The notes below the pieces were generated by a model. That model saw only the letters and a program-made list of their open reading frames with translations, searched no databases and was not told the origin of the DNA. A program made the translations under genes and the position numbers. Below are positions 11,223 through 45,821 of a stretch of 64,000 nucleotides of DNA, one piece after another (position 1 is the stretch's first letter; each line of letters begins with the position of its first letter). This stretch comes from an uncultured Acidobacteriota bacterium. GTDB taxonomy: Bacteria; Acidobacteriota; Vicinamibacteria; Fen-336. The DNA lies in contig CADEEV010000005.1 in NCBI GenBank assembly GCA_902826455.1, positions 2,306 through 66,305 of the forward strand, in the 5' to 3' direction.

Positions 11223-11247
11223 CCGCGCGAGTCTACAATGACCGTGC

Positions 11248-12681
11248 GTGAGCCCGCTCCTGCGACCCGAGCACGTGCAGCATCTCGTGGCGCAGGGCTA
11301 CGGCACGCTCTCCTTCGGCCTGGGCCGCGGTCTCGCCGGGCGTCTCGCGAGCTTGCATCCCGCACTCGAGGGGGAACGGGACTACCAGGCGTGGCTCGAG
11401 TCCCAGGCCAGCCGTCCCGAGACCCGGCAGCCTTCGACCCATCGACCGCTCGTCAGCGTGCTGATGCCGGTGTTCGACGCGCCCGAGCGGTTCCTGCGCG
11501 AGGCGGTCCGATCGCTGCTCGAGCAGTCGTATGAGGAATGGGAGCTGTGTGCGGTGGACGCGGGGCCGGCCGCCTCTCCGGGCGCACGAGCCCTGGCGGA
11601 GCTGGCCCGGGGCGACCGGCGGATCCGCGTGCTGCCCGTGCCCGAGAACCTCGGAATCGCCGGAAACTCCAACGTCGCGCTGCGGGCGGCGCACGGCGCG
11701 TTCGTGGCGACCTTCGACCAGGACGATCGCCTGCACCCCCAGGCTCTCGCCGCGCTCGTCGCGCGCCTCGAGACGCAGCCCGATCTCGACGTCGTCTATT
11801 CGGACATGGACAACATCACGCCGTGGGGCGATCGCTATGCGCCCTTCTTCAAGCCCGACTGGTCGCCCGAGCTGCTGCTCTCGGCCAACTACCTCGCGCA
11901 CTTCAGCTTGATCCGGCGCTCGGCCGTCGAGCACGCCGGCGGCTTCGACACGGCTCTGAACGGAGCCCAGGACTGGGACCTGCTGCTGCGCGTGACCCAC
12001 GCGAACGCTCGCATCGCCCACGTGCCGGAGGTCCTCTACCACTGGCGCGCGTTGCCCACGTCCTGTGCGTCGAGCCTCGACGCCAAGCCCTACGCCCGCG
12101 AGGCCCAACGACGCGCCGTGCAGGCCCAGCTCGACCGGCGCGGCGTGGCGGCCCGCGCCGAGGTCGCGACGGACGGAACCATGCGCCTCTCGGCGCGGGA
12201 CGGGGCCACCGAGGGCCTCGGCGACGTCGTGATCGTCGCCGACCCGCGCCTGGGGCCGCAGCCGGACGAGACATGGCGAGAACTGGCGCTGTGGGCTTCG
12301 GATCCTGCCATCGGCGCGGCCGGAGCCCTGCTGCGCCGGGCGGACGGCCGCATCGAGAGCGCGGGCTACGTCCAGAGCGAGAGCGCCACGCTGTCGCTTT
12401 TCGCGGGCTCGGCCGGAAAGCGCTGGAGCCCGCTGGGCTGGCCTCAGTGGCTCCGCAACGTGACGGAGCCCGTGCCGCTGGCGTTCGCCATGCGGCGCGA
12501 GCTCCACGAACGGCGCGGAGAGCCAGGAGCGCTCGCGGGACTGAGGTGCGTCACGGTGCCGGCGGCCACGATCGCGTGCCCGCCCGGCGTCAGCGTCGAT
12601 CGAGTGAAGCCCGGCGGCGGAGCCGGGCTCGGCTTCAGCCGGAACCTCGACCCGACCTCGCCGGTGCCCCGGCCGCGCTAG
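11248..12681 (+). CDS. Glycosyltransferase family 2 with a C-terminal extension
   Basis: GT-A signature PLVSVLMPVFDAPERFLREAVRSLLEQSY and DxD-type motif FDQDD. Divergent from the A-PCP-TE gene; only 25 bp separate the two start codons. Confidence 0.75.
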   Translation: MSPLLRPEHVQHLVAQGYGTLSFGLGRGLAGRLASLHPALEGERDYQAWLESQASRPETRQPSTHRPLVSVLMPVFDAPERFLREAVRSLLEQSYEEWELCAVDAGPAASPGARALAELARGDRRIRVLPVPENLGIAGNSNVALRAAHGAFVATFDQDDRLHPQALAALVARLETQPDLDVVYSDMDNITPWGDRYAPFFKPDWSPELLLSANYLAHFSLIRRSAVEHAGGFDTALNGAQDWDLLLRVTHANARIAHVPEVLYHWRALPTSCASSLDAKPYAREAQRRAVQAQLDRRGVAARAEVATDGTMRLSARDGATEGLGDVVIVADPRLGPQPDETWRELALWASDPAIGAAGALLRRADGRIESAGYVQSESATLSLFAGSAGKRWSPLGWPQWLRNVTEPVPLAFAMRRELHERRGEPGALAGLRCVTVPAATIACPPGVSVDRVKPGGGAGLGFSRNLDPTSPVPRPR

Positions 12682-13126
12682 TCCTCGATCTGCTGCGCGA
12701 GGTAGTTCGCGAAGCCGAGCTCCTTGATCTGGTGGAGCTGCGCCTCGAGATAGTCGATGTGCTCCTCTTCGCTCGTGAGGATCTCTTCGAGCAGCGCCCG
12801 CGTGCCGTTGTCGCCCTTCTTCGTGGCGAGGGCGATGCCCTCGTTCAGGCGCTTCACGGCGTCGTACTCGAGCTGGAGGTCGACCTCGTGCGGTTGCTCT
12901 TCATGTACGTCTGCATGTTGGGGACGCCGTCCACGTACAGGATGCGGTCCATCACGATCTGGGCGTGCTTCATCTCGCCGATGGATTCCTTGTACGTGTA
13001 GTCGGCGAGGCGCTTGTAGCGCCAGTTCTGGAGCATCCGCGCGTGGATGAAATACTGGTTGATCGCCGTGAGCTCGGCGCACAAGACGTCGTTCAGCACC
13101 TGGATGATCTCGGCGTTGCCCTTCAC
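12678..13126 (-). pseudogene. bfr: Bacterioferritin, disrupted by a frameshift plus an apparent deletion of about 9 codons (or a sequencing error)
   Basis: The N-terminal 72 aa (MKGNAEIIQVLNDVLCAELTAINQYFIHARMLQNWRYKRL...EMKHAQIVMDRILYVDGVPNMQ) match Bfr residues 1-72 and end at a stop at 12854. The C-terminal 77 aa (DVHEEQPHEVDLQLEYDAVKRLNEGI...EEEHIDYLEAQL...) match Bfr residues 82-158 in a different frame that ends at 12678. The junction is near 12893-12913. Confidence 0.7.
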
Positions 13127-22534: not shown

Positions 22535-23216
22535 CGTGCTGCTCTCGATTCCCGACGTGCTGTCGCCGGAACAGGTCGCCGAGGCGCGTCGAGCCCTCGA
22601 CCGCGCAGCCTGGGTCGACGGCGTGGTCACGGCGGGCCATCAGTCGGCACGCGCCAAGAACAACCAGCAGCTCCCCGAGGACTCCGAGACGGCGCGGCGA
22701 ATCGGGGAGCTGGTGCTGGCGGCGCTGCAGCGCAACCCCGTCTTCATGTCCTCAGCGCTGCCCTTGCGCGTCTTCCCGCCGTTGTTCAACCGCTACAAGG
22801 GCGGGCAGTCGTTCGGTACCCACGTCGACAATGCGATCCGGCAGGTGCCGGGCACGGCCCACCGTGTCCGCACCGACCTCTCGGCGACGCTGTTCCTCAG
22901 CCAGCCCGATGAGTACGACGGCGGGGAACTCGTGGTCGAGGACACGTACGGCGTGCACACCGTCAGACTGCCGGCCGGCAGCCTGATCCTCTATCCGGCC
23001 AGCAGCCTGCACCACGTGAAGCCCGTGACGCGCGGGGCGCGCGTCGCGTCATTCTTCTGGATCCAGAGCATGGTGCGCGACGACGGCGAACGGACGCTGC
23101 TGTTCGACCTCGACATGGCCATCCAGAAGCTCGTCCGTGAGACGCCCGATCACGCCGCGGCGGTGCAGTTGACGGGCGTGTACCACAACCTGCTGAGGCG
23201 CTGGGCCGACCTCTAG
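22535..23216 (+). CDS. piuC: Fe(II)/2-oxoglutarate-dependent PKHD-type hydroxylase (PiuC/YbiX family)
   Basis: Collinear with E. coli YbiX (HIPGVLSP.., [52 protein letters not shown]). SD AGGAGG. Confidence 0.9.
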
Positions 23217-24529
23217 GCGCGGCGGCGGGCGCGGGCAGGCGCGGTGGCGAGGAACAGGCCGGTCGCCAGACCGAGCGCGACGGCGAGGGCCAGCCATTCC
23301 TCGGCCTTGATTCCGGTGAGCATCCAGAGGATCACACCGCAGGCCAGGAACGGCGCAACGCCGCCGCCCGGCATCTGGAACGGCGTGCCGCCGGCGCGAA
23401 CGTCGAGCTGTCGCAGCCGCCAGGCCGCGAGACAACACCCGAAGTAGAGGACGATCACCGACAAGCTCGCGAGGATCGCGAGGCGCGCGAACGAACCCGA
23501 GACGGCCAGGCCGCAGGCGAGCGCCGATTGCAGGGCGATGGCGACGTGAGGCGTGCGGAAGCGTGGATGGACGGAGCCGACCACGGCCGGGAGGAAGCCG
23601 TCGCGGGCGAACGCGAACAGGGCGCGCGGCACCGCGAGGATCATGCCGCTCACGTAGCCGAACATGGACACCGTGGCTCCCACGAGGAGCAGCGAGCGCC
23701 CGAATCCGCCAAACATGCGACTGGCGGCCTCGGCGAGGGGTGTGGGCGCGCCGGCGAGAGCCGTGCCCAGAACGCCCTGTGCCGCGGCCTGGAGCGCAAT
23801 ATAGAGAAACGTCACCGCCACCATCGCGAGCAGGATCGCACGCGGGACGGTCCGCGACGGGTCCCGTACCTCACCGCTCGGGAGCAGGGCGCTCTCGACG
23901 CCGCAGAAGGCGAAGAGCAACAGGATCGACGTTCGGGAGACAGCCCCGGCGTCGGGCGCCGCGGGCCATGCGAGGTTCGCGGTCGAGACGTAGAAGGGCG
24001 CCGCGACGACGAGGACGAGCAGCGGCAGGAGCTTGGCGACCGTGAAGACCGCGTTGAAGCGCGTGCCCTTGTCGACGCCCCAGACGTTCAGCAGGCTCAG
24101 CAGCGTGAATACCGTGACCAGGAACACCGCGCGGCCGACGTCGGAGCGCAGAGCCGGGGCGAGCTCGCCGGCGTTGGTCGCGAACACCACCGAGACCGCG
24201 GCGACCGCGAGCGTGCCGAGGAGCCACACGAGGACGCCCGCGAGGAAGCCCGCGAAGGGACCGAACGCGACCTCCACGTAGGCGTAGGGACCGCCGGTGA
24301 GATCCACCCGGCTCCCTGCCTCCGCGAAGCACAGCACGATCAGACCCATGGCGACGGCGCAGACGAGGTAGGCGAGCGGCGCCGCGGCACCCAGCGACTG
24401 GGCGACGTCGGCCGGCAGCCGGAAGATGCCGCCGCCGACGGTCACGTTCACGATCCCGGCCGCCAGGCCCAGGGTGCCGATGGCCCGCACGAGAGACGGC
24501 GCGCCGCTCGGCGCTCCGGAGGGGGCCAT
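23213..24529 (-). CDS. APC-superfamily amino acid/polyamine permease
   Basis: 12-TM permease architecture. Convergent CTAG stop overlap with piuC. Confidence 0.8.
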
Positions 24530-26184: not shown

Positions 26185-27690
26185 CTACAGCTTGCCCTCG
26201 GCCCGCAGCTTCGCCAGTACGCTGTGCTTCCGGCCGTACCCGAAGTAGATGAGAAAACCGAGGCCGAGCCATACGAACAGCCGGTACCAGTTCTCGGCCG
26301 GGAGCGAGAACATCAGCAGCAGGCAGAGCGCGATGCCCGCGAAGGCGGTGAACGGCATCAGGGGCGCCTTGAAGGGACGCTCCGCCTTCGGGTTGGTCTT
26401 GCGCATGATCAGGACGGCCGCGCAGACGACCAGGAACGCGAACAGCGTTCCGATGCTCACGAGGTCGGCGAGCACGCGCAAGGGAACGAGGGCCGCCACG
26501 ATCGCGACGAAGATGCCCGTGAGGATGGTGGACTTCCAGGGCGTACGGAACTTGTCGTGGATCGCTCCGAAGAAGCTCTGGGGCAGCAGGCCGTCGCGCG
26601 CCATCGCGAGGAACACGCGGGGCTGGCTGAGCATCATCACGAGCAGGACCGAGGTGATCCCTGCCAGCGCACCCGCCGACACGAAGAACTGCACCACGTG
26701 CAGGCCGACGTGCTCGAACGCCTTCGACACGGGAGCATCGATGTTGATCTGGTCGTACGGGACCATCCCGGTCAGGACGGCCGTGACCGCGATGTAGAGG
26801 ATCGTGCAGAGCACCAGGGACCAGATGATACCGATGGGCACGTCGCGCTGCGGGTTCTTGGCTTCTTCCGAGTGCGTGGAGATCGAGTCGAACCCGATGT
26901 AGGCGAAGAAGATCGCGGCACCGCCGGCCAGCATGCCCAGGGGCTGGCCGCCGGCGTCGGTCTGGCCGAAGGTGAAGCCGAAGATCTTCACACCGAGCCA
27001 GCCGTGCGGCGCGAACGGGGTCCAGTTTGCCGGATCGACGTAGAAGACGCCGATGCCGATCACCATGAACACGACGGCGAGCTTGATGACCACCATGGCG
27101 GTGTTGAAGCTCGCGCTCTCCTGGATTCCCTTGACGAGCACGATGGTGACGAGAGCCGTGATGATGATGGCCGGAAGGTCGAACAACGTGCCGGTGGCCA
27201 GGAAGTGGCCGACCTTGGGGTCGTAGTCGAAGGGAGCCGCCCGCAACGACTCGGGGATGATGTGGAGCCATCCGAATATGCCCAGCAGGTCCTGGAAGTA
27301 GTGCGACCAGCCATGCGCCACGGTGGAAGACGCGACGGCGTATTCGAGGATGAGGTCCCAGCCGATGATCCATGCGAAGAGCTCGCCGAGGGTGGCGTAG
27401 GCATACGTGTAGGCCGACCCCGCGACGGGCGCCATGGAGGCGAACTCCGAGTAGCACAGCGCCGCGAAGATGCAGGCGAGCCCCGCCACCACGAAGGAGA
27501 TCATCAGGGACGGCCCCGCGACGTCGTGGGCCGCCTTGCCGGTGAGCACGAAGATGCCGGTACCGATGATCGCGCCGACGCCGAGGCTCGTGAGCTGGAG
27601 CGGGCCCAGGACGCGACGCAGGCGGTTCTCCCCCTTGGCCTCGTCGAGGAGCATGCTGAGCGGCTTGGTCGCAAAGAGCGGACTACCCAA
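26185..27690 (-). CDS. Amino acid permease (APC family, cationic amino acid transporter-like)
   Basis: Typical AA_permease blocks (GVGAIIGTGIFVLTG, FAYIGFDSISTHSEEAKNPQRDVP). Confidence 0.85.
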   Translation of the reverse strand: MGSPLFATKPLSMLLDEAKGENRLRRVLGPLQLTSLGVGAIIGTGIFVLTGKAAHDVAGPSLMISFVVAGLACIFAALCYSEFASMAPVAGSAYTYAYATLGELFAWIIGWDLILEYAVASSTVAHGWSHYFQDLLGIFGWLHIIPESLRAAPFDYDPKVGHFLATGTLFDLPAIIITALVTIVLVKGIQESASFNTAMVVIKLAVVFMVIGIGVFYVDPANWTPFAPHGWLGVKIFGFTFGQTDAGGQPLGMLAGGAAIFFAYIGFDSISTHSEEAKNPQRDVPIGIIWSLVLCTILYIAVTAVLTGMVPYDQINIDAPVSKAFEHVGLHVVQFFVSAGALAGITSVLLVMMLSQPRVFLAMARDGLLPQSFFGAIHDKFRTPWKSTILTGIFVAIVAALVPLRVLADLVSIGTLFAFLVVCAAVLIMRKTNPKAERPFKAPLMPFTAFAGIALCLLLMFSLPAENWYRLFVWLGLGFLIYFGYGRKHSVLAKLRAEGKL

Positions 27691-29230: not shown

Positions 29231-29830
29231 TTATAGGGTGGCGGTGTCGGTTCGGCTCGACCAGCGCAGGGACCACACGCAGGCCACGTCGCCACGACTC
29301 TGGCAGTAGCGTTCCTCGGCCGAGACCGGCGCCCCCGTCAGGTGCTCGATCGATCGGCGAAAGTAGCCCTTGGCCGAGAGGCAGTACACCGGATCGTTCT
29401 CGGGGTACTCGCTGAACGAGATCTCGCCGACGCTGAAGTTGATCCGGCGATACTCGGCCTGACCGAAATTGTGGAACCGACGGTGCTCTTCCGCCATTCG
29501 GACCAGGAAGCCGTGGACGTTCACGAGCGCCGCGTGCTCGCCCAGCCAGAGCGTCCGCTGTTGGGCCGACGCCTCGCCGAGGCGCTCGTAGATGGCGGAT
29601 GCGTCCCCGCCGATGTGTCCGGCGATCGCTCGATCGAGCCGGTTGAGCGTAGAGAAAGGGTACCAGGTCTCGCGATCGACGCCCTTCAGCAGCTCGCGGT
29701 CCGCGGGCGTCAGGGCCTCGAGAACGGCTGAGATCGAGTCCGTGCCCTGGTGGCGCCGCAGGTACTCGAAACGGGCCACGACGATCTGCCCGTGGAGAAA
29801 CGGACCCGCGGATTCCGGAGGCTGCGCCAT
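29231..29830 (-). CDS. Hypothetical protein (about 200 aa)
   Basis: Protein-like composition; start chosen at MAQPPESAGPFLHGQIV. Possibly one of the Myxococcus-type paralogous families. No recognised catalytic motif. Confidence 0.45.
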   Translation of the reverse strand: MAQPPESAGPFLHGQIVVARFEYLRRHQGTDSISAVLEALTPADRELLKGVDRETWYPFSTLNRLDRAIAGHIGGDASAIYERLGEASAQQRTLWLGEHAALVNVHGFLVRMAEEHRRFHNFGQAEYRRINFSVGEISFSEYPENDPVYCLSAKGYFRRSIEHLTGAPVSAEERYCQSRGDVACVWSLRWSSRTDTATL

Positions 29831-29987
29831 GGGGCCTTCGAATAGCAGGAAGCATGCCCGCTGTCTATCAATCACTTACAACAATCCGCCCGCAAACGCT
29901 GGCCGAACACCGGACACCTGGCTGAACCTCGGACACACCGGCGCGCAGCCTTGAGCACCACCCACAGATCCTTTACACTTAAACGAT

Positions 29988-30755
29988 ATGGCCGAGAGGC
30001 GGGTGCTGGTCACGGGCGGCGGACGCGGCATCGGCGCTGCCGTCGCCCGTGAGCTCGGGCGCGCGGGGGCGCACCTTGCGCTCGCGGCGCGGAGCCGGGA
30101 TCAGGTCGAGGCGCTGGCCCGCGAGCTCGGCTCCGGGTCGCGGCGTGCGGTGGCCCTGGTCGCGGACGTCTCGGACTCCAGCTCCTGCGACGCCATGGTT
30201 CGCGAGGCGTGCGACGCTCTCGGTGGAATCGACATCCTCGTCAATGCGGCGGGGGTGGCACCCTCGGCTCCCCTCGTGAAGACGACCGACGAGCAGTGGC
30301 GCTCCGCCCTCGACACGAACCTGAGCGGCGCCTTCTACACCACCCGCGCAACTCTCCCCGGGATGCTCGAACGGGGCTGGGGGCGGATCGTGAACGTCGC
30401 TTCGATCGCGGGCAAGACCGGGATGCCCTATATCGCCGCATACTCTGCGAGCAAGCATGGATTGCTGGGGCTCACAAGGTGCGCGGCGCTCGAGGTGGCC
30501 GACAAGGGCATCACGGTGAACGCCGTCTGCCCGGGCTACGTCGACACGGCCATGACCGAGAGCTCGATCGCCCGCATCGTCGCGAAGACGGGGCTCGAGA
30601 GCCGCGCGATCCGCCGTCGCCTCGAGGAGACGAGCCCCCAGAAGCGTCTCTACACCGCCGAAGAGGTCGCGGCCCTGGTCGCGTTCCTGTGCAGCGACGC
30701 GGCCGCCGGCATCAACGGCCAGGCCCTGAGCGTGGACGGCGGAACGGTGGTCTAG
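29988..30755 (+). CDS. Short-chain dehydrogenase/reductase (FabG-like)
   Basis: TGGGRGIGAAVA Rossmann motif and catalytic YSASK. Confidence 0.9.
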   Translation: MAERRVLVTGGGRGIGAAVARELGRAGAHLALAARSRDQVEALARELGSGSRRAVALVADVSDSSSCDAMVREACDALGGIDILVNAAGVAPSAPLVKTTDEQWRSALDTNLSGAFYTTRATLPGMLERGWGRIVNVASIAGKTGMPYIAAYSASKHGLLGLTRCAALEVADKGITVNAVCPGYVDTAMTESSIARIVAKTGLESRAIRRRLEETSPQKRLYTAEEVAALVAFLCSDAAAGINGQALSVDGGTVV

Positions 30756-30757
30756 GG

Positions 30758-31144
30758 ATGCAGCCAGTCGAGGTTCCAGGACTCGCGGCGCCGCGCGGTT
30801 ACAGCCACGCGATGCGTGGCCGCGGGGACATCCTTCTCGTGGCCGGCCAGATCGGTTGGAACGCCGAGGGCAGGATCGTCTCCGACGACTTCGTGGAGCA
30901 GTTCGCACAAGCCCTGGACAACGTGTTGGCGGCCGTCCGAGCCGCCCAGGGAACGCCCGAGAGCATCGGGCGCTTCACGCTCTACGTCGTGGACAAGCGG
31001 CAGTACCTCGCCCGCGCTCGCGAGATCGGCGTTGTCTATCGCGAGCGCATGGGCCGCCACTTCCCGGCCATGTCGCTGGTCGAGGTGAAGGCCCTCCTGG
31101 AGGACCGCGCGCTCGTCGAGATCGAGGCCACGGCGGTCCTGTGA
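30758..31144 (+). CDS. RidA/YjgF/endoribonuclease L-PSP family protein
   Basis: 128 aa, RidA-family length and C-terminal motif (RFTLYVVDKRQY...MSLVEVKALLEDRALVEIEATAV). Confidence 0.8.
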   Translation: MQPVEVPGLAAPRGYSHAMRGRGDILLVAGQIGWNAEGRIVSDDFVEQFAQALDNVLAAVRAAQGTPESIGRFTLYVVDKRQYLARAREIGVVYRERMGRHFPAMSLVEVKALLEDRALVEIEATAVL

Positions 31145-31578
31145 GCGACCCGCAGCTGGCCCTGTCGGTGTGGCTGCGCCTTCTGAAGGCCCATGGTCTA
31201 CTCTTGCGCGAGGTCCGCCGGCGCGTTCCCGGGACCCTCACGCTACCCCAGTTCGACGTCCTCGCCCAGCTTCATCGCAACCCGGACGGGATGACTCCCG
31301 GCATGCTGACCCGCGCTCTTCTCGTGACCGCCGGGAACGTCACCGGCATCGTCGAACGACTCTCAGGGCTCGGGCTCGTGGAGCGCCACCCTGTTCCGGG
31401 CGACCGGCGCGCTGTCCGCATCCGACTGAGCGCGCGCGGTCGTCGCCTGATGGACCGCGCGATCCCACGCCATCGCCGCGACGTCGGGACGCTGTTCGCT
31501 CCCCTTCCGGAACACGAGCTGACGCGGCTACGCGATCTGCTCGGAACCCTGAACCAGCGGCTGGAGGAGCGCGCGTGA
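31141..31578 (+). CDS. MarR-family transcriptional regulator
   Basis: Winged-helix MarR core (LPQFDVLAQLHRNPDGMTPGMLTRALLVTAGNVTGIVERLSGLGLVERHPVPGDRRAVRIRLSARG). GTG start overlapping the RidA stop (GTGA). Confidence 0.8.
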   Translation: MSDPQLALSVWLRLLKAHGLLLREVRRRVPGTLTLPQFDVLAQLHRNPDGMTPGMLTRALLVTAGNVTGIVERLSGLGLVERHPVPGDRRAVRIRLSARGRRLMDRAIPRHRRDVGTLFAPLPEHELTRLRDLLGTLNQRLEERA

Positions 31579-32375
31579 GCCCGCGCAGCTTTCGCTACGA
31601 AGAGTCGGCGGGCGTGGCGCGCATCACCCTCGATCGCCCCGAAGCCCTGAACGCCCTCACATTCCAGGTCTATGAGGAGCTCACGGCGTTGCTCGAGAGC
31701 TTGCACCAGCGACCCGAGGTTCGCGTGGTCGTGCTGACCGGGACGGGACGCGCCTTCTGCACCGGCGGCGACGTCAAGGAGATCATCGGCCCGCTCCTGA
31801 CCTTCGACCGCGGCAAGCTCCTCGCCTTCACGCGGATGACCTGTGCCCTCGTCGCCGCCATGCGCCGAGCGCCGCAGCCGATCGTCGCGTCGCTCAACGG
31901 CACGGTCGCAGGGGCAGGTGCCGCGATCGCCCTCGCGTCGGACGTGCGTGTCGCCGCCGAGTCCGCGAAGATCGCGTTCCTGTTCGTCAAGGTCGGCCTG
32001 GCGGGCGCCGACATGGGAGCCGCGCACCTGCTCCCGCGCCTGGTGGGCCTGGGCCGTGCCACGGAGCTCCTCATGACCGGCGACTTCATCGACGCCCAGG
32101 AGGCGTATCGCATCGGGCTCTACAACCAGGTCGTCTCCCCGGAGCAGCTCGCGGCTGCCACGGAACGTTTCGTCGAGTCCCTGGCACGCGGGCCGCGTGA
32201 GGGACTGGCCGCGACCAAGGCGGCCCTCGACTCGGAGTTCGCCGTCGATCTCAGCACGGCTCTCGACAACGAGGCCCGGATCCAGGCCGAGCTGATGACG
32301 CGGCCCGATTTCAAGGAAGGCTACGCGGCGTTCCTGCAGAAGCGGGCGCCGGCCTTCGAGGGGGCGCCCGAGTGA
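31575..32375 (+). CDS. Enoyl-CoA hydratase/isomerase (crotonase family)
   Basis: Crotonase fold motifs (RVVVLTGTGRAFCTGGDVKE; ASLNGTVAGAGAAIALASDVRVAAESAKIAFLFVKVG). GTGA overlap. Confidence 0.85.
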   Translation: MSPRSFRYEESAGVARITLDRPEALNALTFQVYEELTALLESLHQRPEVRVVVLTGTGRAFCTGGDVKEIIGPLLTFDRGKLLAFTRMTCALVAAMRRAPQPIVASLNGTVAGAGAAIALASDVRVAAESAKIAFLFVKVGLAGADMGAAHLLPRLVGLGRATELLMTGDFIDAQEAYRIGLYNQVVSPEQLAAATERFVESLARGPREGLAATKAALDSEFAVDLSTALDNEARIQAELMTRPDFKEGYAAFLQKRAPAFEGAPE

Positions 32376-33502
32376 GCGACGACCCGTTCCTGGAGACGCG
32401 GCACGTCGAGCTGGCCGAGCGCGTGCGCTTGTTCGGCGACAAGTGGCTTCGGAGCTCCGCGCAGGACGAATCCGATCCCAACGGGCGGACGCGCCGGCTC
32501 GTGGCATCCCTCGCGGAAGCATCGCTCCTGCGCTTCGCGGTCCCGCCGCCCCACGGCGCCATGGACCTGCGCTCGCTGATCGTGGTCCGGGAAGGGCTGG
32601 CGTACTTCTCCTCCCTGGCCGACGCGGCGTTCGTCATTCAGGGCCTCGGCTCGTACCCGATCGCCCTCGCCGGAACCGAAGTGCAGCGGAACACCTGGCT
32701 GCCGCCGGTTGCCGGAGGCCACGTGCTGGCGGCATTCGCGGTGACCGAGCCGGAAGCGGGCTCCGACCTGGCCGGCGTGCGCACACGGGCTCGGCGCGAC
32801 GGCGCGCTCTGGCGTCTCGAGGGCCTCAAGACGTTGATCTCCAACGCGGGCATCGCCGGCGTCTACTGCGTGCTCGCCCGAACCGCCGACGGCAGCGACC
32901 ACAAGGGCCTGTCCATGTTCCTGGTCGACGCCGAGGCGCCCGGCCTCAGCGTGCGCCCCCTCGAGCCCATGGCCCCCCACCCCCTGGGTGAGGTGCGGTT
33001 CGCGGGCACGCCGGCCCTGCTCCTGGGAGAGGAAGGCGCCGGCTTCTCTCTCGCGGCTTCGACCCTCGAGCAGTTCCGGCCGAGCGTCGGCGCGGCGGCG
33101 TGTGGCATGGCCGCGCGCGCCTTCGACGAGGCGCTCCGTCACGCCCAGGGGCGCCGCCAGTTCGGCCGGAGCCTGTCCGACTTCCAGGCCACGAAGATGG
33201 CGCTGGCCGAGATGCACGTGGAGCTCGAGTCGGCGCGACTGCTCGTGCGCAAGGCGGCTTGGCTGCGCGACACCGGCCGGCCGTCGATCGCCAAGGAAGG
33301 GGCCGTGGCCAAGCTCGCGGCCACGGAGATGGCCCAGCGCGTCGTGGATCGTGCCGTGCAGATCCACGGCGGCCAGGGTGTCCTGCGAGGCGCGACCGTC
33401 GAGCGCCTGTACCGCGAGGTCCGCTCCCTGCGCATCTACGAAGGCACGAGCGAGATCCAGAAGCTGGTGATCGCCCGCGAGATCCTGAAGGAGAAGAAGT
33501 GA
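32372..33502 (+). CDS. Acyl-CoA dehydrogenase
   Basis: ACAD motifs (AFAVTEPEAGSDLAGVRTRA; IYEGTSEIQKLVIAREILK). GTGA overlap. Confidence 0.9.
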   Translation: MSDDPFLETRHVELAERVRLFGDKWLRSSAQDESDPNGRTRRLVASLAEASLLRFAVPPPHGAMDLRSLIVVREGLAYFSSLADAAFVIQGLGSYPIALAGTEVQRNTWLPPVAGGHVLAAFAVTEPEAGSDLAGVRTRARRDGALWRLEGLKTLISNAGIAGVYCVLARTADGSDHKGLSMFLVDAEAPGLSVRPLEPMAPHPLGEVRFAGTPALLLGEEGAGFSLAASTLEQFRPSVGAAACGMAARAFDEALRHAQGRRQFGRSLSDFQATKMALAEMHVELESARLLVRKAAWLRDTGRPSIAKEGAVAKLAATEMAQRVVDRAVQIHGGQGVLRGATVERLYREVRSLRIYEGTSEIQKLVIAREILKEKK

Positions 33503-34212
33503 GCGCCGAGATCCTCGACAAAGACGCGATGTCGCCCGAGTACGCGCAGATGATCGTCCAGCTGATGGAGAGCCAGGCCTATCGGGAGCTGGCCGCGGCG
33601 CACATGTTCGGCCATGGGCTGCGCTTCGTCCCCGACAAGTGGCTGCGCTTCATGGTGTGGCACATCCGCGAGGAAGCGGAGCACTACGAGGCAGTCGCGA
33701 AGATGTACAAGCAGTTCACCGGCAACGAGGTCGAGCCGGTCGTCCGCAAGCGGCTCGAGGGCAAGCCCATCCCCATGGCCGAGAGCTGGATGGAGCTCGC
33801 GATGGCCCAGTTCCTGTACGACCGCGGCGGCTTCTGGCAGCTCAAGGAATACGAGGACTGCTCCTTCGTTCCCTATCGAGGGGTGATCCAGAAGATCGTC
33901 AAGGAGGAAGCCGGCCACCAGAGCCTCGGCGAGAAGATCGTCGTCGAGCAGTGCCAGTCGGGCGACTTCGACGACGTGAAGCAGCATCTCTTCGAACGCT
34001 GGCTCCGCATCGGCTTGCTGTCCTTCGGACGCCCCGGAACCCCCGGCAACCGCTACGCCATCGAGCACGGCATCAAGAAGCGCGACTCGGCCGAGTGCAT
34101 GAAGGACTTCGTGGCGGACATCCGGCCCGCGGTCAAGGCCGCCGGCCTCGTCTTCCCCACCCCGGCCGCGCTCCAGATGGAGCTGCCCGGGGACATCGAC
34201 TGGAGCGTGTGA
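33499..34212 (+). CDS. Ferritin-like diiron oxygenase of the PaaA/PaaC (phenylacetic acid catabolic) family; short 237-aa form
   Basis: Two E-x-x-H diiron motifs (HIREEAEHYEAV; IVKEEAGHQSLG) resembling the PaaA catalytic subunit, but about 70 aa shorter. GTGA overlap with the ACAD stop. Confidence 0.6.
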   Translation: MSAEILDKDAMSPEYAQMIVQLMESQAYRELAAAHMFGHGLRFVPDKWLRFMVWHIREEAEHYEAVAKMYKQFTGNEVEPVVRKRLEGKPIPMAESWMELAMAQFLYDRGGFWQLKEYEDCSFVPYRGVIQKIVKEEAGHQSLGEKIVVEQCQSGDFDDVKQHLFERWLRIGLLSFGRPGTPGNRYAIEHGIKKRDSAECMKDFVADIRPAVKAAGLVFPTPAALQMELPGDIDWSV

Positions 34213-34213
34213 G

Positions 34214-34663
34214 ATGGGACGCATCCTGGACCTGTGCGCGGAGATCGCTTCCGAGGCCGAGGAGGGCGAGGACGGCCTCGTGCTCGCCCCCGAGTCCTGG
34301 GAGCGCTTCCGCCAGGACTGGAACGACGAGGAGATCGACGACGCCCTGGCCCTGGTGAAGGACAGCCTCATGCAGGGAGAGCTGGTCGAGGCCTCGGACA
34401 GCCTGTCGGCACGCCTGCTCGACGTCCTCGGCGAGTTCGGCAGCCCCGAGAGCTTCAAGGCGGCGGTGGACGGCGAAGCACGCTGGAGCGTCGAGATCCT
34501 GGGGCAGCTCGCGCGCCGCATCAACCGTCTCGAGGAAGTGCTCGAGGTCTATCGCGACGGCACGCCGCCCGACCGTAGCGGCTTCGACGGCTTGAGGCGA
34601 CAGCTCTCGACGTACGGCATCGAAGACGAGATGGGCGACGACGGCGACCCGCAGGAGAACTGA
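34214..34663 (+). CDS. Hypothetical acidic protein (149 aa)
   Basis: The ATG sits 1 nt after the upstream stop. Asp/Glu-rich; no recognised motif. Confidence 0.45.
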   Translation: MGRILDLCAEIASEAEEGEDGLVLAPESWERFRQDWNDEEIDDALALVKDSLMQGELVEASDSLSARLLDVLGEFGSPESFKAAVDGEARWSVEILGQLARRINRLEEVLEVYRDGTPPDRSGFDGLRRQLSTYGIEDEMGDDGDPQEN

Positions 34664-34670
34664 TCCTCCG

Positions 34671-36044
34671 GTGAGCCACGGCGGCCGGTCCGAGGCCCTC
34701 CTCTTCCAGCCCCTTCCCGTCGGCCGCGGCGGGCACGTCCTTCCGAACCGCGTCTGGCTGCCCGCCATGGTCACGTGGCGCGGCAGCGACGACGGGTTCG
34801 TGACGCCGTCGGTCCGGGAGATCTACCTGCGCTACGCCCTGGGCGGCGCCGGCATGATCGTGCTCGAGGCCACGGGGATCCGGGACGTGGCCAGCGGGCC
34901 GCTGTTGCGCCTCTCGGACGATCGCTACGTTCCCGGCCTCGCGGCCCTCCGCGACGAGATGAGGGCGGTCTCGAAGGGCCTCGTGATCCCACAGATCATC
35001 GACTTCCTCAAGATCGCGACGCGCAAGCCCACGCGCGACTACATGGCCGGCATGGTGCGGCGCGGCCGCCTGCCCGAGGCGGTCCTCGAGCTCACCGACG
35101 GAGCCTTCGAGGCGCGCGCCGACGAGCTCCTCGGCCCCAGGGAGCTGCGGGACTTCCGCCATGGCTACCGTCAGACCATCGAGGACCTGGACCTGGCGGA
35201 GATCCGCCACATCCCGGGCTGGTTCGCCGCAGCGGCGCGACGCGCAAGGACGGCCGGCTTCGACGGCGTCGAGCTGCACTTCGCCCACGCCTACACCCTG
35301 GCCTCGTTCCTCTCCGTCACGAACCGGCGCACGGACGCCTATGGCGGGAGCTTCGAGAACCGCATGCGGCTCCCGCTCGAGGTCGTCGCCGCGGTGCGCG
35401 AGGAGGTGGGGCGCGAGTTCATCGTGGGCTGCCGCTACCTCGGCAGCGAGGACATCCGCGCCGACGACGGCCAGATCGTCGGCAACACCCTCGACGACGC
35501 GCGGGCGATCGGAGTCGAGCTGTGCCGCGCGGGGCTCGACTTCCTCTCCATCTCCCGTGGCGGCAAGTTCGACGACGCCAAGCAGCCGCCGGTCGGTGAG
35601 GCCGCGTATCCCTACACGGGCTGGAGCGGCAGCCGCTGCATCCCCCGCGACAAGAAAGATCCCGCGGAGGTCAACGTGTTCCTGGCGACCGGGATCCGCG
35701 CCGCCGTACGCGAAGCCGGCTTCAGCGTGCCCGTGGTGGCCGCGGGCAAGATCCACACGTTCGAGCAGGCCGAAGGCATCCTGAGCTCGAGGCGCGCCGA
35801 TCTGGTGGGCATGGCGCGGGCCCTGCTCGCCGACCCCGATCTGCCCCGCAAGTGGCGCGACAGCGGCGACTCCGACGCGCGCGCGTGCGTGTTCTGCCCC
35901 TACTGCGAGCAGGAGGACCAGCACCATCGCGTGGTCACCTGCACGCTCTGGCCCAAGGATCCTTCCAATCCGCGAGCCCGCCTGACGCCAGGCCTGTGGC
36001 ATCCGGGCGCTCCCTTCGACCGACGAGCGCTGTTCCGGGGTTAG
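34671..36044 (+). CDS. Old-Yellow-Enzyme family FMN oxidoreductase (2,4-dienoyl-CoA reductase N-terminal-like) with a C-terminal Cys cluster
   Basis: OYE TIM-barrel motifs (GFDGVELHFAHAYTLASFLS, NRRTDAYGGSFENRMR) plus C-x2-C-x2-C-x11-C (CVFCPYCEQEDQHHRVVTC). It lacks the FadH-type C-terminal FAD/NADPH domains. Confidence 0.85.
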   Translation: MSHGGRSEALLFQPLPVGRGGHVLPNRVWLPAMVTWRGSDDGFVTPSVREIYLRYALGGAGMIVLEATGIRDVASGPLLRLSDDRYVPGLAALRDEMRAVSKGLVIPQIIDFLKIATRKPTRDYMAGMVRRGRLPEAVLELTDGAFEARADELLGPRELRDFRHGYRQTIEDLDLAEIRHIPGWFAAAARRARTAGFDGVELHFAHAYTLASFLSVTNRRTDAYGGSFENRMRLPLEVVAAVREEVGREFIVGCRYLGSEDIRADDGQIVGNTLDDARAIGVELCRAGLDFLSISRGGKFDDAKQPPVGEAAYPYTGWSGSRCIPRDKKDPAEVNVFLATGIRAAVREAGFSVPVVAAGKIHTFEQAEGILSSRRADLVGMARALLADPDLPRKWRDSGDSDARACVFCPYCEQEDQHHRVVTCTLWPKDPSNPRARLTPGLWHPGAPFDRRALFRG

Positions 36045-36057: not shown

Positions 36058-38160
36058 ATGACAGCGAGGGCGCGCTGGGCTGCAACGGTCGTGTTCGCGA
36101 GCCTGCTCGGCGGCGCCCTTCTGGCGCCCGGCGGCAATGCCGATGCGCCGAAGACGGCGCCGCGCCTGCCGGAGCTGCAAGCTCCCTACCCGTTGCCGCC
36201 CCTGCCGCCCCAGTCGCCGCGCAACGCGAACTACACGATCGAGGCCCGCCTCGATCCGGCGACGCAGACGATCGACGGCAGCCTGGTGCTCGAGTGGCGC
36301 AACCTCGGGGACGTCCCGATCGAGACGTTCCCGTTCCATCTCTACTGGAACGCCTTCCGGAACAACCTGTCGAGCACCGCGCGGGGCGACGGCACGCGGG
36401 CGGCCCGCTTCAAGTCCGACCGCGACTACGGCTTCATGAAGATCAAGCGCATCGTGCTGCTCGGCGAGCCCGAGGTCGACCTGACGCGAGGCTTGCGCTT
36501 CCTCGCGCCCGACGATCAGAACGGGGCCGATCGGACGATCGGCGGCGTGACCGCGCCCCGGGCGATTCCACCGGGCGCGACGGCCCGCTTCCGGATCGAG
36601 TGGACGGCGCGGATCCCCTACGGGGCCCTGGGCCGCGCGGGGTGGATCCACGACTACTACTTCGTCGTGCAGTGGTTCCCCAAGATCGGCGTCTTCCGGA
36701 AGGACCGCTGGAACGCCCACCAGTTCCACTCCCAGGGCGAGTTCTTCTCGGACTACGGCAACTACGACGTGACGCTCACGCTCCCCCAGGGATTCGTCGT
36801 CGGCGCCACCGGGACGTCGGAGCCCGCGCGGAACAATCCCGATGGAACGCAGACCGTGCGCTTCCGGCAGGACGACGTCCACGACTTCGCCTGGACCGCG
36901 AGCCGCCGCTTCCTCGAGCGCCGCTCCCGCTTCGAGGAGGCGGGCTACGCGCCGGTCGACATACGCCTGCTGCTGCAGCCCGAGCACGAGCACCTGGCCG
37001 AGCGCTACCTGCGCGCCACCGAGGTGGCGCTGCGCAGCTATGGCACCTGGGCCGCGCCGTATCCGTACGGCCACATCACGGTCGTGGACCCGGCGTGGTT
37101 CTCCGCGTCGGGAGGCATGGAGTACCCGACGCTCTTCACCGGCGGAACCCACGTCCAGGCCCCGATTGAGCTCCAGAGCCCGGAGACCGTGACGGTCCAC
37201 GAGGCCGGCCACCAGTTCTGGTACGGCCTTGTGGGCACGAACGAGTTCGAGGAGGCGTGGCTGGACGAAGGCCTCAACGACTACGCCGAGGCCAAGGCCC
37301 TCGAGCTCTTCTACGGCCCGATGGGCCTCGGCCGCCGTTACTTCGGCGGGAAGGAGTCGCGAGGACGGCAGCGCGGCTGGCCCGTGGTCGCACCGGGCGT
37401 CTCGATCGGTCGCGGCGAGCAGAGCCTGTCCGACCTGCGGCGACTCGGCGAGCGCGATCCGATGGTCCGCAACTCCTGGGAGTTCGAGAACGCCGACGTC
37501 TACACCCTCAACGCCTACCGCAAGCCGGCCCTCGTCTACCAGACCCTCGAGGGGCTCGTGGGCGACGAGACGATGACGCGCATCCTGCGCACCTGGAGCC
37601 ACCGCTACCAGTTCGAGCACCCCACGACCCGGGACTTCATCGCCACGGTGAACGAGGTGACGGGCCAGGACTGGACCTGGTTCTTCGACGAGACGTTCTA
37701 CTCGAGCGGGCTATGCGACTACGCGGTCGTGGTCCAGGAGGAGCCGCGCCGGCGGGCGACGGGCTACGTGGACGGTCCTCCCGGCGATCGCAACACGCCC
37801 ACCCCGGCCATCACCATGGCGAAGGGAATGCCCGACGACGGTCTCACGGAGACCACGGTCACCGTGCGCCGCCTCGGCGCGGTGCGGATGCCCGTCGAGA
37901 TCGTGGTGGAGCTCGCGGACGGCCGCGTGGTGCGCGAGAGCTGGGACGGCCGCGACCGTTGGGCACGCTTCCGCTACGACGGTCCGAAGGTGCAGCGCGT
38001 GAGCGTCGACCCGGATCACAAGCTGGCCATCGACGTCGATCCCTCCAACAACACGTGGCGCCGCGAGGAAGGTCTCGCGCGCCAGGCCGCGTGGAAGTGG
38101 TCGGCGCGCTTCCTGTTCTGGCTGCAGAACCTCCTGGAGCTCCACACGGTGCTGGGTTGA
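36058..38160 (+). CDS. Secreted M1-family zinc metallopeptidase (aminopeptidase N-like)
   Basis: Signal peptide, then HEAGHQFWYG...(18 aa)...EAWLDEGL gluzincin motif. Confidence 0.9.
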   Translation: MTARARWAATVVFASLLGGALLAPGGNADAPKTAPRLPELQAPYPLPPLPPQSPRNANYTIEARLDPATQTIDGSLVLEWRNLGDVPIETFPFHLYWNAFRNNLSSTARGDGTRAARFKSDRDYGFMKIKRIVLLGEPEVDLTRGLRFLAPDDQNGADRTIGGVTAPRAIPPGATARFRIEWTARIPYGALGRAGWIHDYYFVVQWFPKIGVFRKDRWNAHQFHSQGEFFSDYGNYDVTLTLPQGFVVGATGTSEPARNNPDGTQTVRFRQDDVHDFAWTASRRFLERRSRFEEAGYAPVDIRLLLQPEHEHLAERYLRATEVALRSYGTWAAPYPYGHITVVDPAWFSASGGMEYPTLFTGGTHVQAPIELQSPETVTVHEAGHQFWYGLVGTNEFEEAWLDEGLNDYAEAKALELFYGPMGLGRRYFGGKESRGRQRGWPVVAPGVSIGRGEQSLSDLRRLGERDPMVRNSWEFENADVYTLNAYRKPALVYQTLEGLVGDETMTRILRTWSHRYQFEHPTTRDFIATVNEVTGQDWTWFFDETFYSSGLCDYAVVVQEEPRRRATGYVDGPPGDRNTPTPAITMAKGMPDDGLTETTVTVRRLGAVRMPVEIVVELADGRVVRESWDGRDRWARFRYDGPKVQRVSVDPDHKLAIDVDPSNNTWRREEGLARQAAWKWSARFLFWLQNLLELHTVLG

Positions 38161-41312: not shown

Positions 41313-42065
41313 ATGGCCGAGAACATCGTGATGTCGGAGATGACGTGGACCGAGATCGAGGAGGCGCTCAAGGAGCGTCCCGTCGGCCTCCTGCCGGTGG
41401 GCGCCGTCGAAGCTCACGGCCCGCACCTGCCGGTTTCGGCGGACACCGTGATCGCCACGGAGATGGCGAGACGCGGCGCCGAGAAGCTGAAGGAGCACGG
41501 GGTTCCCTCGCTCATCCTGCCCCCGGTCTACTTCACGGTGGCCGATTTCGGCGCGTCCTTCCCGGGCACGCTCAGCATCCCGGCGGATACCGCCGTGGCG
41601 TTGCTGCGCGACGTCTGCATCGCGGCGTCCAAGCGCTTCCGCTGCGTCGGGCTCGCGAACATCCACCTCGAGCCGCAGCACATCGAGTGCGTGAAGAAGG
41701 CTCTCGAGGAAGCGACCAAGGCCGGCGCCTCGGCGTGCTACGCCGACCTCTCGCGCAAGCGCTGGGCCGAGACCATGGGCCCGGTGTTCCAGCTCGGCGA
41801 CCACGCCGGCGCCTGGGAGACCTCGCTGATGATGGCCGCCGCGCCGGCCATGGTGCGCGAGCGCGAGCGCATCAGCCTGCCGCCCCTCGACGGCCTGATG
41901 CCCGCGCTCAAGAAGGGCGCCAAGACCTTCGTGGATGCCGGCGGCGAGGACGCCTACTTCGGCGATCCGACGGCGGCCTCGGCGGAGGACGGCGACAACT
42001 ACTACGAGTCCCTCGGCGAGGTGTTGTGCGTCTCGGTGATGGAACACCTCGGGAGCAAGGCGTAA
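41313..42065 (+). CDS. Creatininase-family amidohydrolase (creatinine amidohydrolase / MftE-like)
   Basis: LLPVGAVEAHGPHLPVSADT and GHAGAWETSLMMA motifs. Purine-rich SD AAGGAAAGGAGAGAAGGAA. Confidence 0.85.
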   Translation: MAENIVMSEMTWTEIEEALKERPVGLLPVGAVEAHGPHLPVSADTVIATEMARRGAEKLKEHGVPSLILPPVYFTVADFGASFPGTLSIPADTAVALLRDVCIAASKRFRCVGLANIHLEPQHIECVKKALEEATKAGASACYADLSRKRWAETMGPVFQLGDHAGAWETSLMMAAAPAMVRERERISLPPLDGLMPALKKGAKTFVDAGGEDAYFGDPTAASAEDGDNYYESLGEVLCVSVMEHLGSKA

Positions 42066-42478
42066 CGTTCTCCACGACGATCCTCGTCCGGTTCTGCGAC
42101 CTCGACCCGGCGGGGATCGCCTACTACCCCAACCTCGTCAACTTCCTGCACGTCGCCTTCGAGGATTTCTTTGCGGGCCACGTGGGGCGGCCCTACCCGG
42201 ACGTCTTTCGCGAGGGTATCGGCTTTCCCACCGTGAAGGTCGAGATGGAGTACCTCTCCCCGGTCCACTACGGCGATCGCGTGGAGGTCTCCGTGGCCGT
42301 CGAGAAGCTGGGCCGGTCGTCGGTAGGCTTCCGCTATGCGGGCAGCGTGGCCGGCAAGCCGGTGTTCACGGCCCGCAACACCGCCGTGGTGGTCGACATG
42401 AAGACGTTCCGCCCGATTCCGCTGCCGGAATCGTTGCGGAGCAAGTTTGTGGAAGCGCAGGATCCGGCTCCGGCCTAA
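42026..42478 (+). CDS. Hotdog-fold acyl-CoA thioesterase (4-hydroxybenzoyl-CoA thioesterase / YbgC-like)
   Basis: TFSTTILVRFCDLDPAGIAYYPNLVNFLHVAFEDFF matches the 4HBT N-terminus. There is no ATG/GTG/TTG next to the expected N-terminus; the only in-frame canonical start is GTG 42026, 39 nt inside the creatininase gene. Confidence 0.65.
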   Translation: MRLGDGTPREQGVTFSTTILVRFCDLDPAGIAYYPNLVNFLHVAFEDFFAGHVGRPYPDVFREGIGFPTVKVEMEYLSPVHYGDRVEVSVAVEKLGRSSVGFRYAGSVAGKPVFTARNTAVVVDMKTFRPIPLPESLRSKFVEAQDPAPA

Positions 42479-42536
42479 ATTCCCTCGAGCCCCTCGTCGC
42501 CTCATCCCAAGGGTCGGTACGCTCATCGGAGGAATC

Positions 42537-45821
<3,285 letters not shown>

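Follow-up and report, generated by a model that had tools for sequence, protein, structure and literature searches.

The DNA analysed here (the window) is a stretch of 64,000 nucleotides with a G+C content of ~70%, located on contig CADEEV010000005.1 (assembly GCA_902826455.1) of an uncultured member of the Vicinamibacteria, an abundant soil lineage of the Acidobacteriota with few cultured members. At 29988-36044 it holds eight open reading frames (ORFs), all on the plus strand and in one direction, whose domains were read by Pfam and NCBIfam as those of an SDR family oxidoreductase, a RidA protein, a MarR regulator, an enoyl-CoA hydratase/isomerase family protein (ECH), an acyl-CoA dehydrogenase (ACAD), a PaaA-like diiron protein, an acidic protein and a stand-alone oxidoreductase of the Old Yellow Enzyme (OYE) type (Table 1). 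Based on gene content and sequence comparison, we propose that this operon, together with the flavin reductase, ligase and creatininase-family genes downstream, encodes a variant of the anthranilate pathway in which the diiron protein takes the place of an FAD monooxygenase, a reading to which we assign a probability of roughly 0.6.

The order and domains of the eight genes agree with those listed in a preliminary description of the locus, and the junctions reported there can be read in the sequence, with GTGA overlaps at 31141, 31575, 32372 and 33499 and gaps of 1 nt and 7 nt ahead of 34214 and 34671, respectively. The RidA gene truly starts at the ATG at 30758, 2 nt past the SDR stop codon, and the same gene lengths and spacing are found in independent gene calls of identical metagenome contigs. 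Tight coupling of starts and stops is ordinary for operons of genomes with 70% G+C, and unremarkable in itself. The idea of a single conserved operon for aryl or alicyclic CoA thioesters is upheld by synteny across Vicinamibacteria, the eight-gene block being present in at least 12 genomes. The MarR gene is missing from three Vicinamibacteria loci (L007, L008 and L013; L and P numbers are our own labels for retrieved sequences). The diiron protein is the best-conserved product of the operon, with 78-89% identity across the Vicinamibacteria. Its closest homologues all derive from metagenome-assembled genomes of Vicinamibacteria or Acidobacteriota, and a scan of genome contigs with this single protein returned Vicinamibacteria only.

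Table 1. Genes of the operon and of the region downstream, in window coordinates.
Product	Position	Strand	Profile matches and remarks
SDR family oxidoreductase, 255 aa	29988..30755	+	PF13561/PF00106
RidA/YjgF family protein, 128 aa	30758..31144	+	PF01042, 78 bits
MarR family regulator, 145 aa, operon-internal	31141..31578	+	PF12802/PF01047
Enoyl-CoA hydratase/isomerase family (ECH), 266 aa, PRK08258 type	31575..32375	+	NF006107 equivalog, 345.6 bits (cutoff 330)
Acyl-CoA dehydrogenase (ACAD), 376 aa	32372..33502	+	PF00441/PF02770/PF02771
PaaA-like ferritin-fold diiron protein, 237 aa	33499..34212	+	PF05138 PaaA_PaaC, 49.5 bits
Acidic protein, 149 aa, pI 4.05	34214..34663	+	no Pfam or NCBIfam match
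Stand-alone OYE-type FMN oxidoreductase, 457 aa	34671..36044	+	PF00724, 142 bits
Flavin reductase-like protein, 164 aa	39187..39681	+	PF01613, 143 bits; overlaps ligase start
Benzoate-CoA ligase family enzyme, 526 aa	39678..41258	+	TIGR02262, 542 bits
Creatininase-family amidohydrolase, 250 aa	41313..42065	+	PF02633, 170 bits
4HBT/YbgC-type hotdog acyl-CoA thioesterase, ~150 aa, start uncertain	42026..42478	+	PF13279/PF03061; YbgC/FadM sub-threshold

The diiron protein

The 237-residue protein scores 49.5 bits on PF05138, above the cutoff of 28.5, and does not reach the PaaA equivalog TIGR02156 (43 bits against a cutoff of 280), with ~23% identity to bona fide PaaA. The six PaaA-type ligands E30, E59, H62, D108, E137 and H140 are nevertheless all present and invariant in 22 relatives, and both E-x-x-H motifs pointed out in the preliminary description belong to this complete set. 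An AlphaFold (AF2) model of the protein reached a pLDDT of 92.7, and ranking of its fold by Foldseek placed PaaA on top (TM-score 0.83-0.84), followed by the archaeal protein SSO1313 (0.76) and by BoxB and PaaC (0.71-0.73). In blastp, PaaA was matched at E = 3e-13 and PaaC at E = 0.27, while the match to BoxB was marginal in sequence (E = 0.14), with a TM-score of 0.72 on the query and 0.38 on the target. Profile and structure checks thus agree on a family match, complete ligands and a PaaA-like predicted fold, and the protein is not the PaaC-like, ligand-less form that had been considered at the outset, PaaA being closer by both blastp and fold.

The diiron subunit had been described as lacking its usual partners, and this is borne out by tblastn, which detected no homologue of PaaB, PaaC, PaaD or PaaZ in the window. 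A PaaE-type reductase was absent from Pfam scans of most called window genes, with no search aimed directly at PaaE, and BoxA- or BoxC-like genes did not appear in the Pfam scans of window genes either. Compared with the PaaABC(D)E system, the window protein has PaaA as its best fold match, an identical Glu/His/Asp six-ligand set and an association with a CoA ligase, which implies a CoA-thioester substrate; it is, however, 70-90 residues shorter, and stands without the PaaB, PaaC and PaaD partners and without a PaaG/PaaZ/PaaJ lower pathway. BoxB/BoxA likewise relies on a diiron centre for the dearomatisation of an aryl-CoA within an aerobic 'hybrid' pathway, but BoxB comprises ~480 residues, and the BoxA reductase and BoxC lyase have no visible counterpart here. 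SSO1313 of Sulfolobus solfataricus (PDB 4mud, 235 residues) is similar in size, stands alone and represents the best PDB sequence match (E = 1.3e-6), yet is ~16% identical in the structural alignment; it is a structural-genomics target labelled as a 'ring oxidation complex/phenylacetic acid degradation-related' protein. Being archaeal and uncharacterised, it provides no functional information on the window protein.

Among 1.84 billion representatives, this small family accounts for 317 clusters at the 50% identity level. Tectimicrobiota, Chloroflexota, Planctomycetota, Thermodesulfobacteriota, other Acidobacteria and Deltaproteobacteria contain members at 43-51% identity. Some homologues carry an N-terminal fusion to a thioredoxin-like 2Fe-2S ferredoxin (NF041613, 85 bits; P0439, P0447, P0449, P0450, P0452, P0453 and P0457), which argues for a redox-active oxygenase in need of electron input. 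Fused genes of this kind (Fdx::diiron) are located at 2705-3778 in L019 and at 1666-2742 in L110, and are directly followed by OYE, ligase and creatininase-family genes. Separately, several clades of the ~235-residue family have lost most diiron ligands (P0259, P0270, P0272, P0276, P0279, P0286, P0294 and P0302); these members may be non-catalytic, either PaaC-like partners or repurposed proteins.

Relation to the anthranilate pathway

Aerobic CoA 'hybrid' pathways for aromatics are known in three forms: phenylacetyl-CoA is attacked by the diiron enzyme PaaABCE, benzoyl-CoA by the diiron enzyme BoxAB and 2-aminobenzoyl-CoA by a flavoprotein, ACMR. The last of these, the anthranilate pathway (abm), was first described in Azoarcus evansii. 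ACMR, or 2-aminobenzoyl-CoA monooxygenase/reductase (PRK08255), joins an FAD monooxygenase and an OYE domain in one fused protein, and the family is named 'bifunctional salicylyl-CoA 5-hydroxylase/oxidoreductase' at NCBI. By hydroxylation and hydrogenation it converts 2-aminobenzoyl-CoA into 2-amino-5-oxocyclohex-1-ene-1-carboxyl-CoA, and beta-oxidation-like enzymes have been proposed for the further degradation of this product (PMC4539516, PMC3534580). The steps past ACMR are listed as insufficiently known (PMC9007349).

The best annotated plasmid homologues of the window ECH sit in ACMR clusters. In Deinococcus psychrotolerans (L016) the order is ACMR-SDR-MarR-ECH-ACAD-ligase-cyclase-TPP enzyme-RidA, in Azospirillum thermophilum ligase-SDR-ACMR-SDR-ECH-ACAD-thioesterase-RidA, and in Gemmatirosa kalamazoonensis ACMR...SDR-ECH-ACAD-ligase-RidA. 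The window proteins are 47% (SDR, against the Deinococcus and Azospirillum clusters), 51-53% (RidA), 37.5% (MarR, against L016), 47-49% (ECH) and 46-48% (ACAD) identical to those of the ACMR clusters, and the position of MarR between SDR and ECH is also found in L016, L036, L048 and L083. Like the window ECH, the enzymes of three ACMR clusters clear the NF006107 cutoff, at 425-491 bits, and so do those of other diiron clusters, at 366-370 bits. The window ECH is 59-61% identical to its counterparts in L020 and L049; on the PaaG model it scores 192 bits against a cutoff of 345.

The window hence contains the gene set of abm clusters, that is the SDR-(MarR)-ECH-ACAD block, RidA and a benzoate-CoA-ligase-family ligase, and SDR, RidA, MarR, ECH and ACAD are orthologues of the abm/ACMR lower genes, at 37-61% identity and in the same order. 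As a conserved 2-aminobenzoyl-CoA gene set, the OYE, the regulator and the five 'beta-oxidation-like' genes make anthraniloyl-CoA, rather than phenylacetyl- or benzoyl-CoA, the likely substrate, and we regard membership in the abm-type pathway family as highly probable for this cluster. A known beta-oxidation or lipid-A operon was considered and rejected, because the ECH belongs to the pathway-specific PRK08258 type and the genes around it are aryl-CoA genes. The ECH is the marker enzyme of the abm-type lower pathway and possibly a ring hydrolase or hydratase, and RidA is a candidate enamine/imine deaminase for the 2-amino-cyclohexene-carboxyl-CoA intermediate.

Apart from the lower genes and the ligase, mostly in the same order, the likeness to the ACMR/abm clusters of Azoarcus evansii and relatives extends to an OYE-type reductase module and, in relatives of the window, to a link with tryptophan/kynurenine genes. 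The window differs in that the FAD monooxygenase half is absent, in that the OYE is separate, belongs to another subfamily (28-31% identity to the OYE half of ACMR) and carries a Cys motif, and in that the PaaA-like diiron protein and the acidic 149-residue protein are placed between ACAD and OYE. A tblastn search with the N-terminal half of ACMR recovered no homologue from the window, and none from 14 Vicinamibacteria loci or from L017-L022, L025 and L026, which are diiron loci of other lineages.

Genomic contexts of the diiron protein and the OYE

Distant homologues of the diiron protein were collected by a profile protein search, and the encoding contigs were then retrieved. At 43-47% identity, the diiron gene adjoins the same OYE in seven contexts outside the Vicinamibacteria (L019, L020, L022, L025, L110, L111 and the P0419 contig), or eight with the window lineage. 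The arrangement RidA-ECH-diiron-OYE-tryptophan dioxygenase-kynureninase is found twice, in L020 and the P0419 contig, whereas L022 shows diiron-OYE-SDR-ECH-ACAD-ligase, L025 ligase-thiolase-diiron-RidA-OYE, L111 ligase-diiron-OYE-TetR-SDR, and L019 and L110 ACAD-Fdx::diiron-OYE-ligase-creatininase. In three of these contexts (L020, L025 and the P0419 contig) RidA is a neighbour of the diiron gene.

The OYE was followed in 80 metagenome loci retrieved by an OYE profile (OYE identity 40-77%), with a gene census by tblastn and flanks of up to 10 kb per relative; 47 of the 80 have usable flanks of at least 3 kb. Fused ACMR occurs with SDR-(MarR)-ECH-ACAD-RidA-OYE in eight loci (kind A), a stand-alone FAD monooxygenase with the OYE in seven (kind B), and the diiron protein with the OYE in two, both of Vicinamibacteria type (kind C). 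Tryptophan dioxygenase and/or kynureninase is encoded in 9/80, and abm-core or kynurenine-pathway genes are present in 27 of the 47 loci with usable flanks. In L034, L040, L042, L049, L053, L065 and L066 the OYE is joined by a ligase (57-65% identical to that of the window), a tryptophan 2,3-dioxygenase and a kynureninase, and a kind-B FAD monooxygenase lies within the available flanks of four of these seven.

The closest cluster, L049, is composed of SDR (53%), RidA (55%), ECH (61%), ACAD (51%), two small unrelated ORFs and a 375-residue FAD monooxygenase of kind B, an enzyme 38-43% identical to the N-terminal half of ACMR, followed by a convergent OYE (47%), a benzoate-CoA-ligase-family ligase (65%), tryptophan dioxygenase and kynureninase. 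Located downstream of ACAD, this FAD monooxygenase fills the same slot as the diiron and acidic genes of the window. The diiron gene was found in none of the 15 FAD-monooxygenase loci, and in no sampled locus do the two enzymes occur together. Three loci with core genes and no visible monooxygenase (L048, L073 and L088) yielded no alternative oxygenase in gene calls filtered by G+C at third codon positions; longest-ORF calls on OYE loci without detected pathway genes are confounded by antisense ORFs in high-G+C DNA. Taken with the gene content, the complete ligands and the PaaA-like fold, the general idea of a minimal diiron enzyme in aryl-CoA oxygenation and dearomatisation survives, and we judge it somewhat probable, from these sequence comparisons, that the diiron protein is an anthraniloyl-CoA oxygenase standing in for the FAD monooxygenase of ACMR.

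The OYE and the supply of electrons

The catalytic residues H203, H206 and Y208 of the OYE are invariant, and the Cys motif C-x2-C-x2-C-x11-C (C406, C409, C412 and C424) is located at the end of the barrel. Among the cysteines, only C323, C406, C412 and C424 are invariant in homologues of other lineages; C409 is replaced in L019, L020, L022 and L049, and the invariant C323 could substitute for it. The best scores were obtained for the N-terminal domains of mycofactocin OYE_2 (172 bits) and BaiCD (163 bits), and the barrel-end motif recalls FadH/BaiCD/trimethylamine dehydrogenase-type flavoenzymes, in which an OYE TIM barrel is combined with a 4Fe-4S cluster. In contrast to these, the window protein ends at residue 457 and lacks the C-terminal FAD/NAD(P)H domains, and the second Cys of the motif is unconserved outside the Vicinamibacteria. 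A barrel insertion of ~45 residues (35019-35165, residues ~117-165; RKPTRDYMAGMV...LRDF) is common to Vicinamibacteria, L019 and L049, and is not present in L020 and L022.

We propose that the OYE would act as ene-reductase of the dearomatised ring CoA ester. As the subfamily is also found with fused ACMR or a split FAD monooxygenase, such ene-reduction is more likely to be its main role than electron supply to a diiron centre. The preliminary description had regarded the OYE/FeS protein as electron source: the Cys motif is indeed present and the adjacency to the diiron gene recurs, but the OYE is not specific to diiron genes and its motif is only partly conserved. Its company with FAD monooxygenases, which need no external reductase, further weakens the idea of a dedicated diiron reductase, although the Cys/Fe-S end could in principle act as an electron conduit to the diiron centre. 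A second, stand-alone Cys-motif OYE, 45-49% identical to that of the window, was observed beside the abm genes in the fused-ACMR loci L036, L039, L047, L057, L074, L075, L080 and L083, directly after RidA in L036, L074, L080 and L083; two OYE modules per fused-ACMR cluster suggest an additional or different reduction step in the anthranilate-CoA pathway.

Another candidate electron source for the diiron centre is the flavin reductase at 39187, which is syntenic in nine Vicinamibacteria loci and translationally coupled to the ligase. The 80 OYE loci, all but two of them (78) without a diiron gene, contain no homologue of it. In other lineages the donor would be the fused 2Fe-2S ferredoxin domain. 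The acidic protein, confined to the Vicinamibacteria lineage, is all-helical and has no His and a single, unconserved Cys, and therefore exhibits no evident metal or cofactor motif. Its fold search recovered generic helical bundles only, and no similarity to PaaB was found; as a guess, the diiron enzyme might use it as a coupling or effector protein.

Proposed pathway and alternative explanations

In the proposed scheme, anthranilate, typically derived from tryptophan via kynurenine, would be activated to 2-aminobenzoyl-CoA by the ligase at 39678. The diiron protein would then oxygenate and dearomatise the ring in an O2-dependent manner, probably at C5 by analogy with ACMR, with an epoxide route as in PaaA/BoxB also possible, and in Vicinamibacteria the acidic helical protein would assist. 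Next, the OYE would hydrogenate the dienone product to amino-oxo-cyclohexene-carboxyl-CoA, after which RidA would deaminate, the PRK08258-type crotonase would hydrate or ring-open, the SDR would oxidise or reduce, and ACAD would dehydrogenate. The substrate, regiochemistry, product, electron donor and order of the lower steps are all inferred here. The system is most aptly seen as a novel form of the known anthraniloyl-CoA pathway, and not as an entirely separate route. Of the uncharacterised route that had been suggested initially, the theme of aryl-CoA oxygenation and dearomatisation stands, while the pathway itself is anchored in the known abm/ACMR gene set.

Several observations weigh against this assignment. 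Genes for tryptophan dioxygenase and kynureninase were found neither in the 64-kb window nor within 10 kb in the Vicinamibacteria loci, so that the anthranilate assignment is made in this lineage by orthology alone. The link to the flavin reductase is restricted to Vicinamibacteria, without a homologue in the diiron loci of other lineages, and only two loci of kind C were recovered among the 80. In L017, L018 and L026 the diiron gene resides in an unrelated context or with a CoA ligase neighbour only, and hence the diiron family is not confined to the anthranilate pathway. The OYE accompanies even a fused ACMR that has its own OYE domain, and may therefore catalyse a different, later reduction, in which case the hydrogenation that follows the diiron enzyme would be left without an assigned catalyst. 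Finally, the search covered the window and flanks of up to 10 kb, and an FAD monooxygenase may be encoded elsewhere in the genome.

The last of these points leads to an anthranilate pathway in which the first oxygenation is carried out by a flavin monooxygenase encoded elsewhere, and the diiron protein is accessory or hydroxylates, desaturates or epoxidises an alicyclic or open-chain CoA intermediate further along the route. We regard this as unlikely, though the most serious of the alternatives: the OYE subfamily and the lower genes go with FAD monooxygenases in most retrieved clusters, the flanks covered are limited, the diiron family extends to non-abm contexts and the chemistry past ACMR has room for a further oxygenase. 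It is at odds, however, with the strict separation of the diiron gene and the FAD monooxygenase in the sampled loci, with the position of the diiron gene in the slot that the monooxygenase takes in L049, and with minimal clusters (L111 and the P0419-type RidA-ECH-diiron-OYE-tryptophan dioxygenase-kynureninase) in which no other oxygenase candidate is encoded. The same architecture may instead serve another aryl-CoA, for example that of salicylate or of a hydroxy- or other aminobenzoate, or else an N-acylated anthranilate first processed by the creatininase-family amidohydrolase. An amino substituent is indicated by the conservation of RidA. Ligases encoded beside tryptophan dioxygenase and kynureninase share 57-65% identity with that of the window, and these very genes directly adjoin two diiron clusters. 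Together this renders a different substrate rather improbable, despite the salicylyl-CoA name of the ACMR family, the lack of nearby kynurenine-pathway genes in the Vicinamibacteria clusters and the conserved creatininase-family and flavin reductase genes, both missing from kind-B clusters.

Least probable is the original view of a minimal Paa/Box-like epoxidase of phenylacetyl- or benzoyl-CoA, with the OYE/Fe-S protein as dedicated reductase in an otherwise new epoxidation-reduction route. PF05138 membership, the PaaA-like fold, the OYE next to the diiron gene in seven non-Vicinamibacteria contexts and a Cys motif that could hold an Fe-S cluster are all compatible with it, but so low a score on the PaaA equivalog (43 against 280 bits), the marginal BoxB match (E = 0.14), the failure to find PaaB, PaaC, PaaD or PaaZ homologues in the window, an ECH of PRK08258 rather than PaaG type, and the same OYE in clusters whose FAD monooxygenases require no external reductase speak against such an enzyme.

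If the replacement of the FAD monooxygenase by the diiron protein is correct, the anthranilate branch of the hybrid pathways gains a diiron solution from a much smaller, stand-alone relative of PaaA. It would represent a clear case of non-orthologous displacement, with flavin and diiron oxygen chemistry on one pathway scaffold, and would offer a compact system (237 residues plus one or two partners) for the study of diiron aryl-CoA dearomatisation. A function would also be provided for a protein that is 78-89% conserved across the Vicinamibacteria, and tryptophan/anthranilate catabolism would be predicted there. The stand-alone Cys-motif OYE is a regular, unstudied part of anthranilate-CoA clusters, and a concrete candidate for a step past ACMR. 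More speculatively, and on balance doubtful, the 237-residue protein might found a third class of aryl-CoA diiron oxygenases next to PaaABCE and BoxAB, single-subunit enzymes that displace the ACMR flavin monooxygenase in several phyla. Their unconventional donors would be the OYE/Fe-S protein, truncated, FadH-like and at once the ene-reductase, or a free flavin reductase or a fused, thioredoxin-like 2Fe-2S ferredoxin, and in Vicinamibacteria the acidic protein would be the coupling component. No description of a diiron anthraniloyl-CoA oxygenase was found in the literature searched.

Neighbouring genes and further observations

Downstream of the operon, most Vicinamibacteria loci encode a secreted M1 peptidase, a flavin reductase, a benzoate-CoA-ligase-family enzyme and a creatininase-family protein. 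The identities given to the flavin reductase and the ligase in the preliminary description are confirmed by PF01613 and TIGR02262, whereas its two nearby PaaI-class thioesterases are not: the protein at 42026 belongs to the YbgC/4HBT type, and for that at 47319 the only hotdog match is sub-threshold. A thioesterase gene is also part of the Azospirillum ACMR cluster. We propose, from its relatives, that the ligase is an anthranilate-CoA ligase, as it shares 52% identity with its counterpart in the Fdx::diiron-OYE cluster L019 and is most similar in the above range to those that adjoin tryptophan dioxygenase and kynureninase. A kynureninase-like tblastn match at 54846-55958 (minus strand) was discarded as SufS-like.

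The ligase-creatininase pair recurs in eight Vicinamibacteria loci and in L019, L110 and L077, and the creatininase-family gene is repeatedly found with ligase and OYE in these unrelated lineages (7053-7829, 5818-6609 and 3471-3959, respectively). The best NCBIfam matches of its product, MftE and creatininase, are both far under cutoff; speculatively, the enzyme might feed the pathway as a deformylase or amidase, for instance by acting on N-formylkynurenine or an N-acyl anthranilate. The operon is further flanked by secreted M1 peptidase/PD40-amidohydrolase proteins and two APC-family amino-acid permeases (36058-38160, 42447-45821 and, on the minus strand, 23213-24529 and 26185-27690); the M1 peptidase gene recurs at the corresponding place in most Vicinamibacteria loci. 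This neighbourhood is consistent with peptide and amino-acid scavenging.

With respect to the MarR autoregulation suggested in the preliminary description, no inverted repeat that could serve as MarR operator was found in 29860-29995, which covers the 112-bp upstream region, and promoter and terminator scans gave scores at or under shuffle expectation. Divergent from the operon, at 29231-29875 on the minus strand, is a gene for a 214-residue protein with a sub-threshold match to the small-molecule-binding V4R domain (23.9 bits against a cutoff of 31), which is kept upstream of the operon in L001 and is a possible second sensor or regulator.

Some of the retrieved loci display further peculiarities. 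Plasmid 2 of Gemmatirosa kalamazoonensis (NZ_CP007130.1) has SDR-ECH sequence at both ends of its circular record (L029 11289-12504 and L027 1339-2903), probably a terminal assembly overlap or a junction duplication. The Sphingomonas daechungensis plasmid L028 encodes an abm-type SDR-ECH-ACAD-RidA-ligase cluster with ACAD in two frames (9954-11068) and no ACMR within 9 kb, and may be decaying. In L025, a cluster of deltaproteobacterial type, the OYE is fused to an NMT1-like domain of the periplasmic-binding-protein fold (10282-12732, 816 residues) and is placed behind the diiron gene and RidA; genes for hydantoinase A/B, a molybdenum hydroxylase and UbiD lie close by. Lastly, a protein of 65-72 residues with the motif PPCVARN...ALWQ..NDL, not present in the window, is encoded directly after PaaK-like CoA ligases and beside diiron genes in two distant lineages (L018 8751-8969 and L022 15324-15521).

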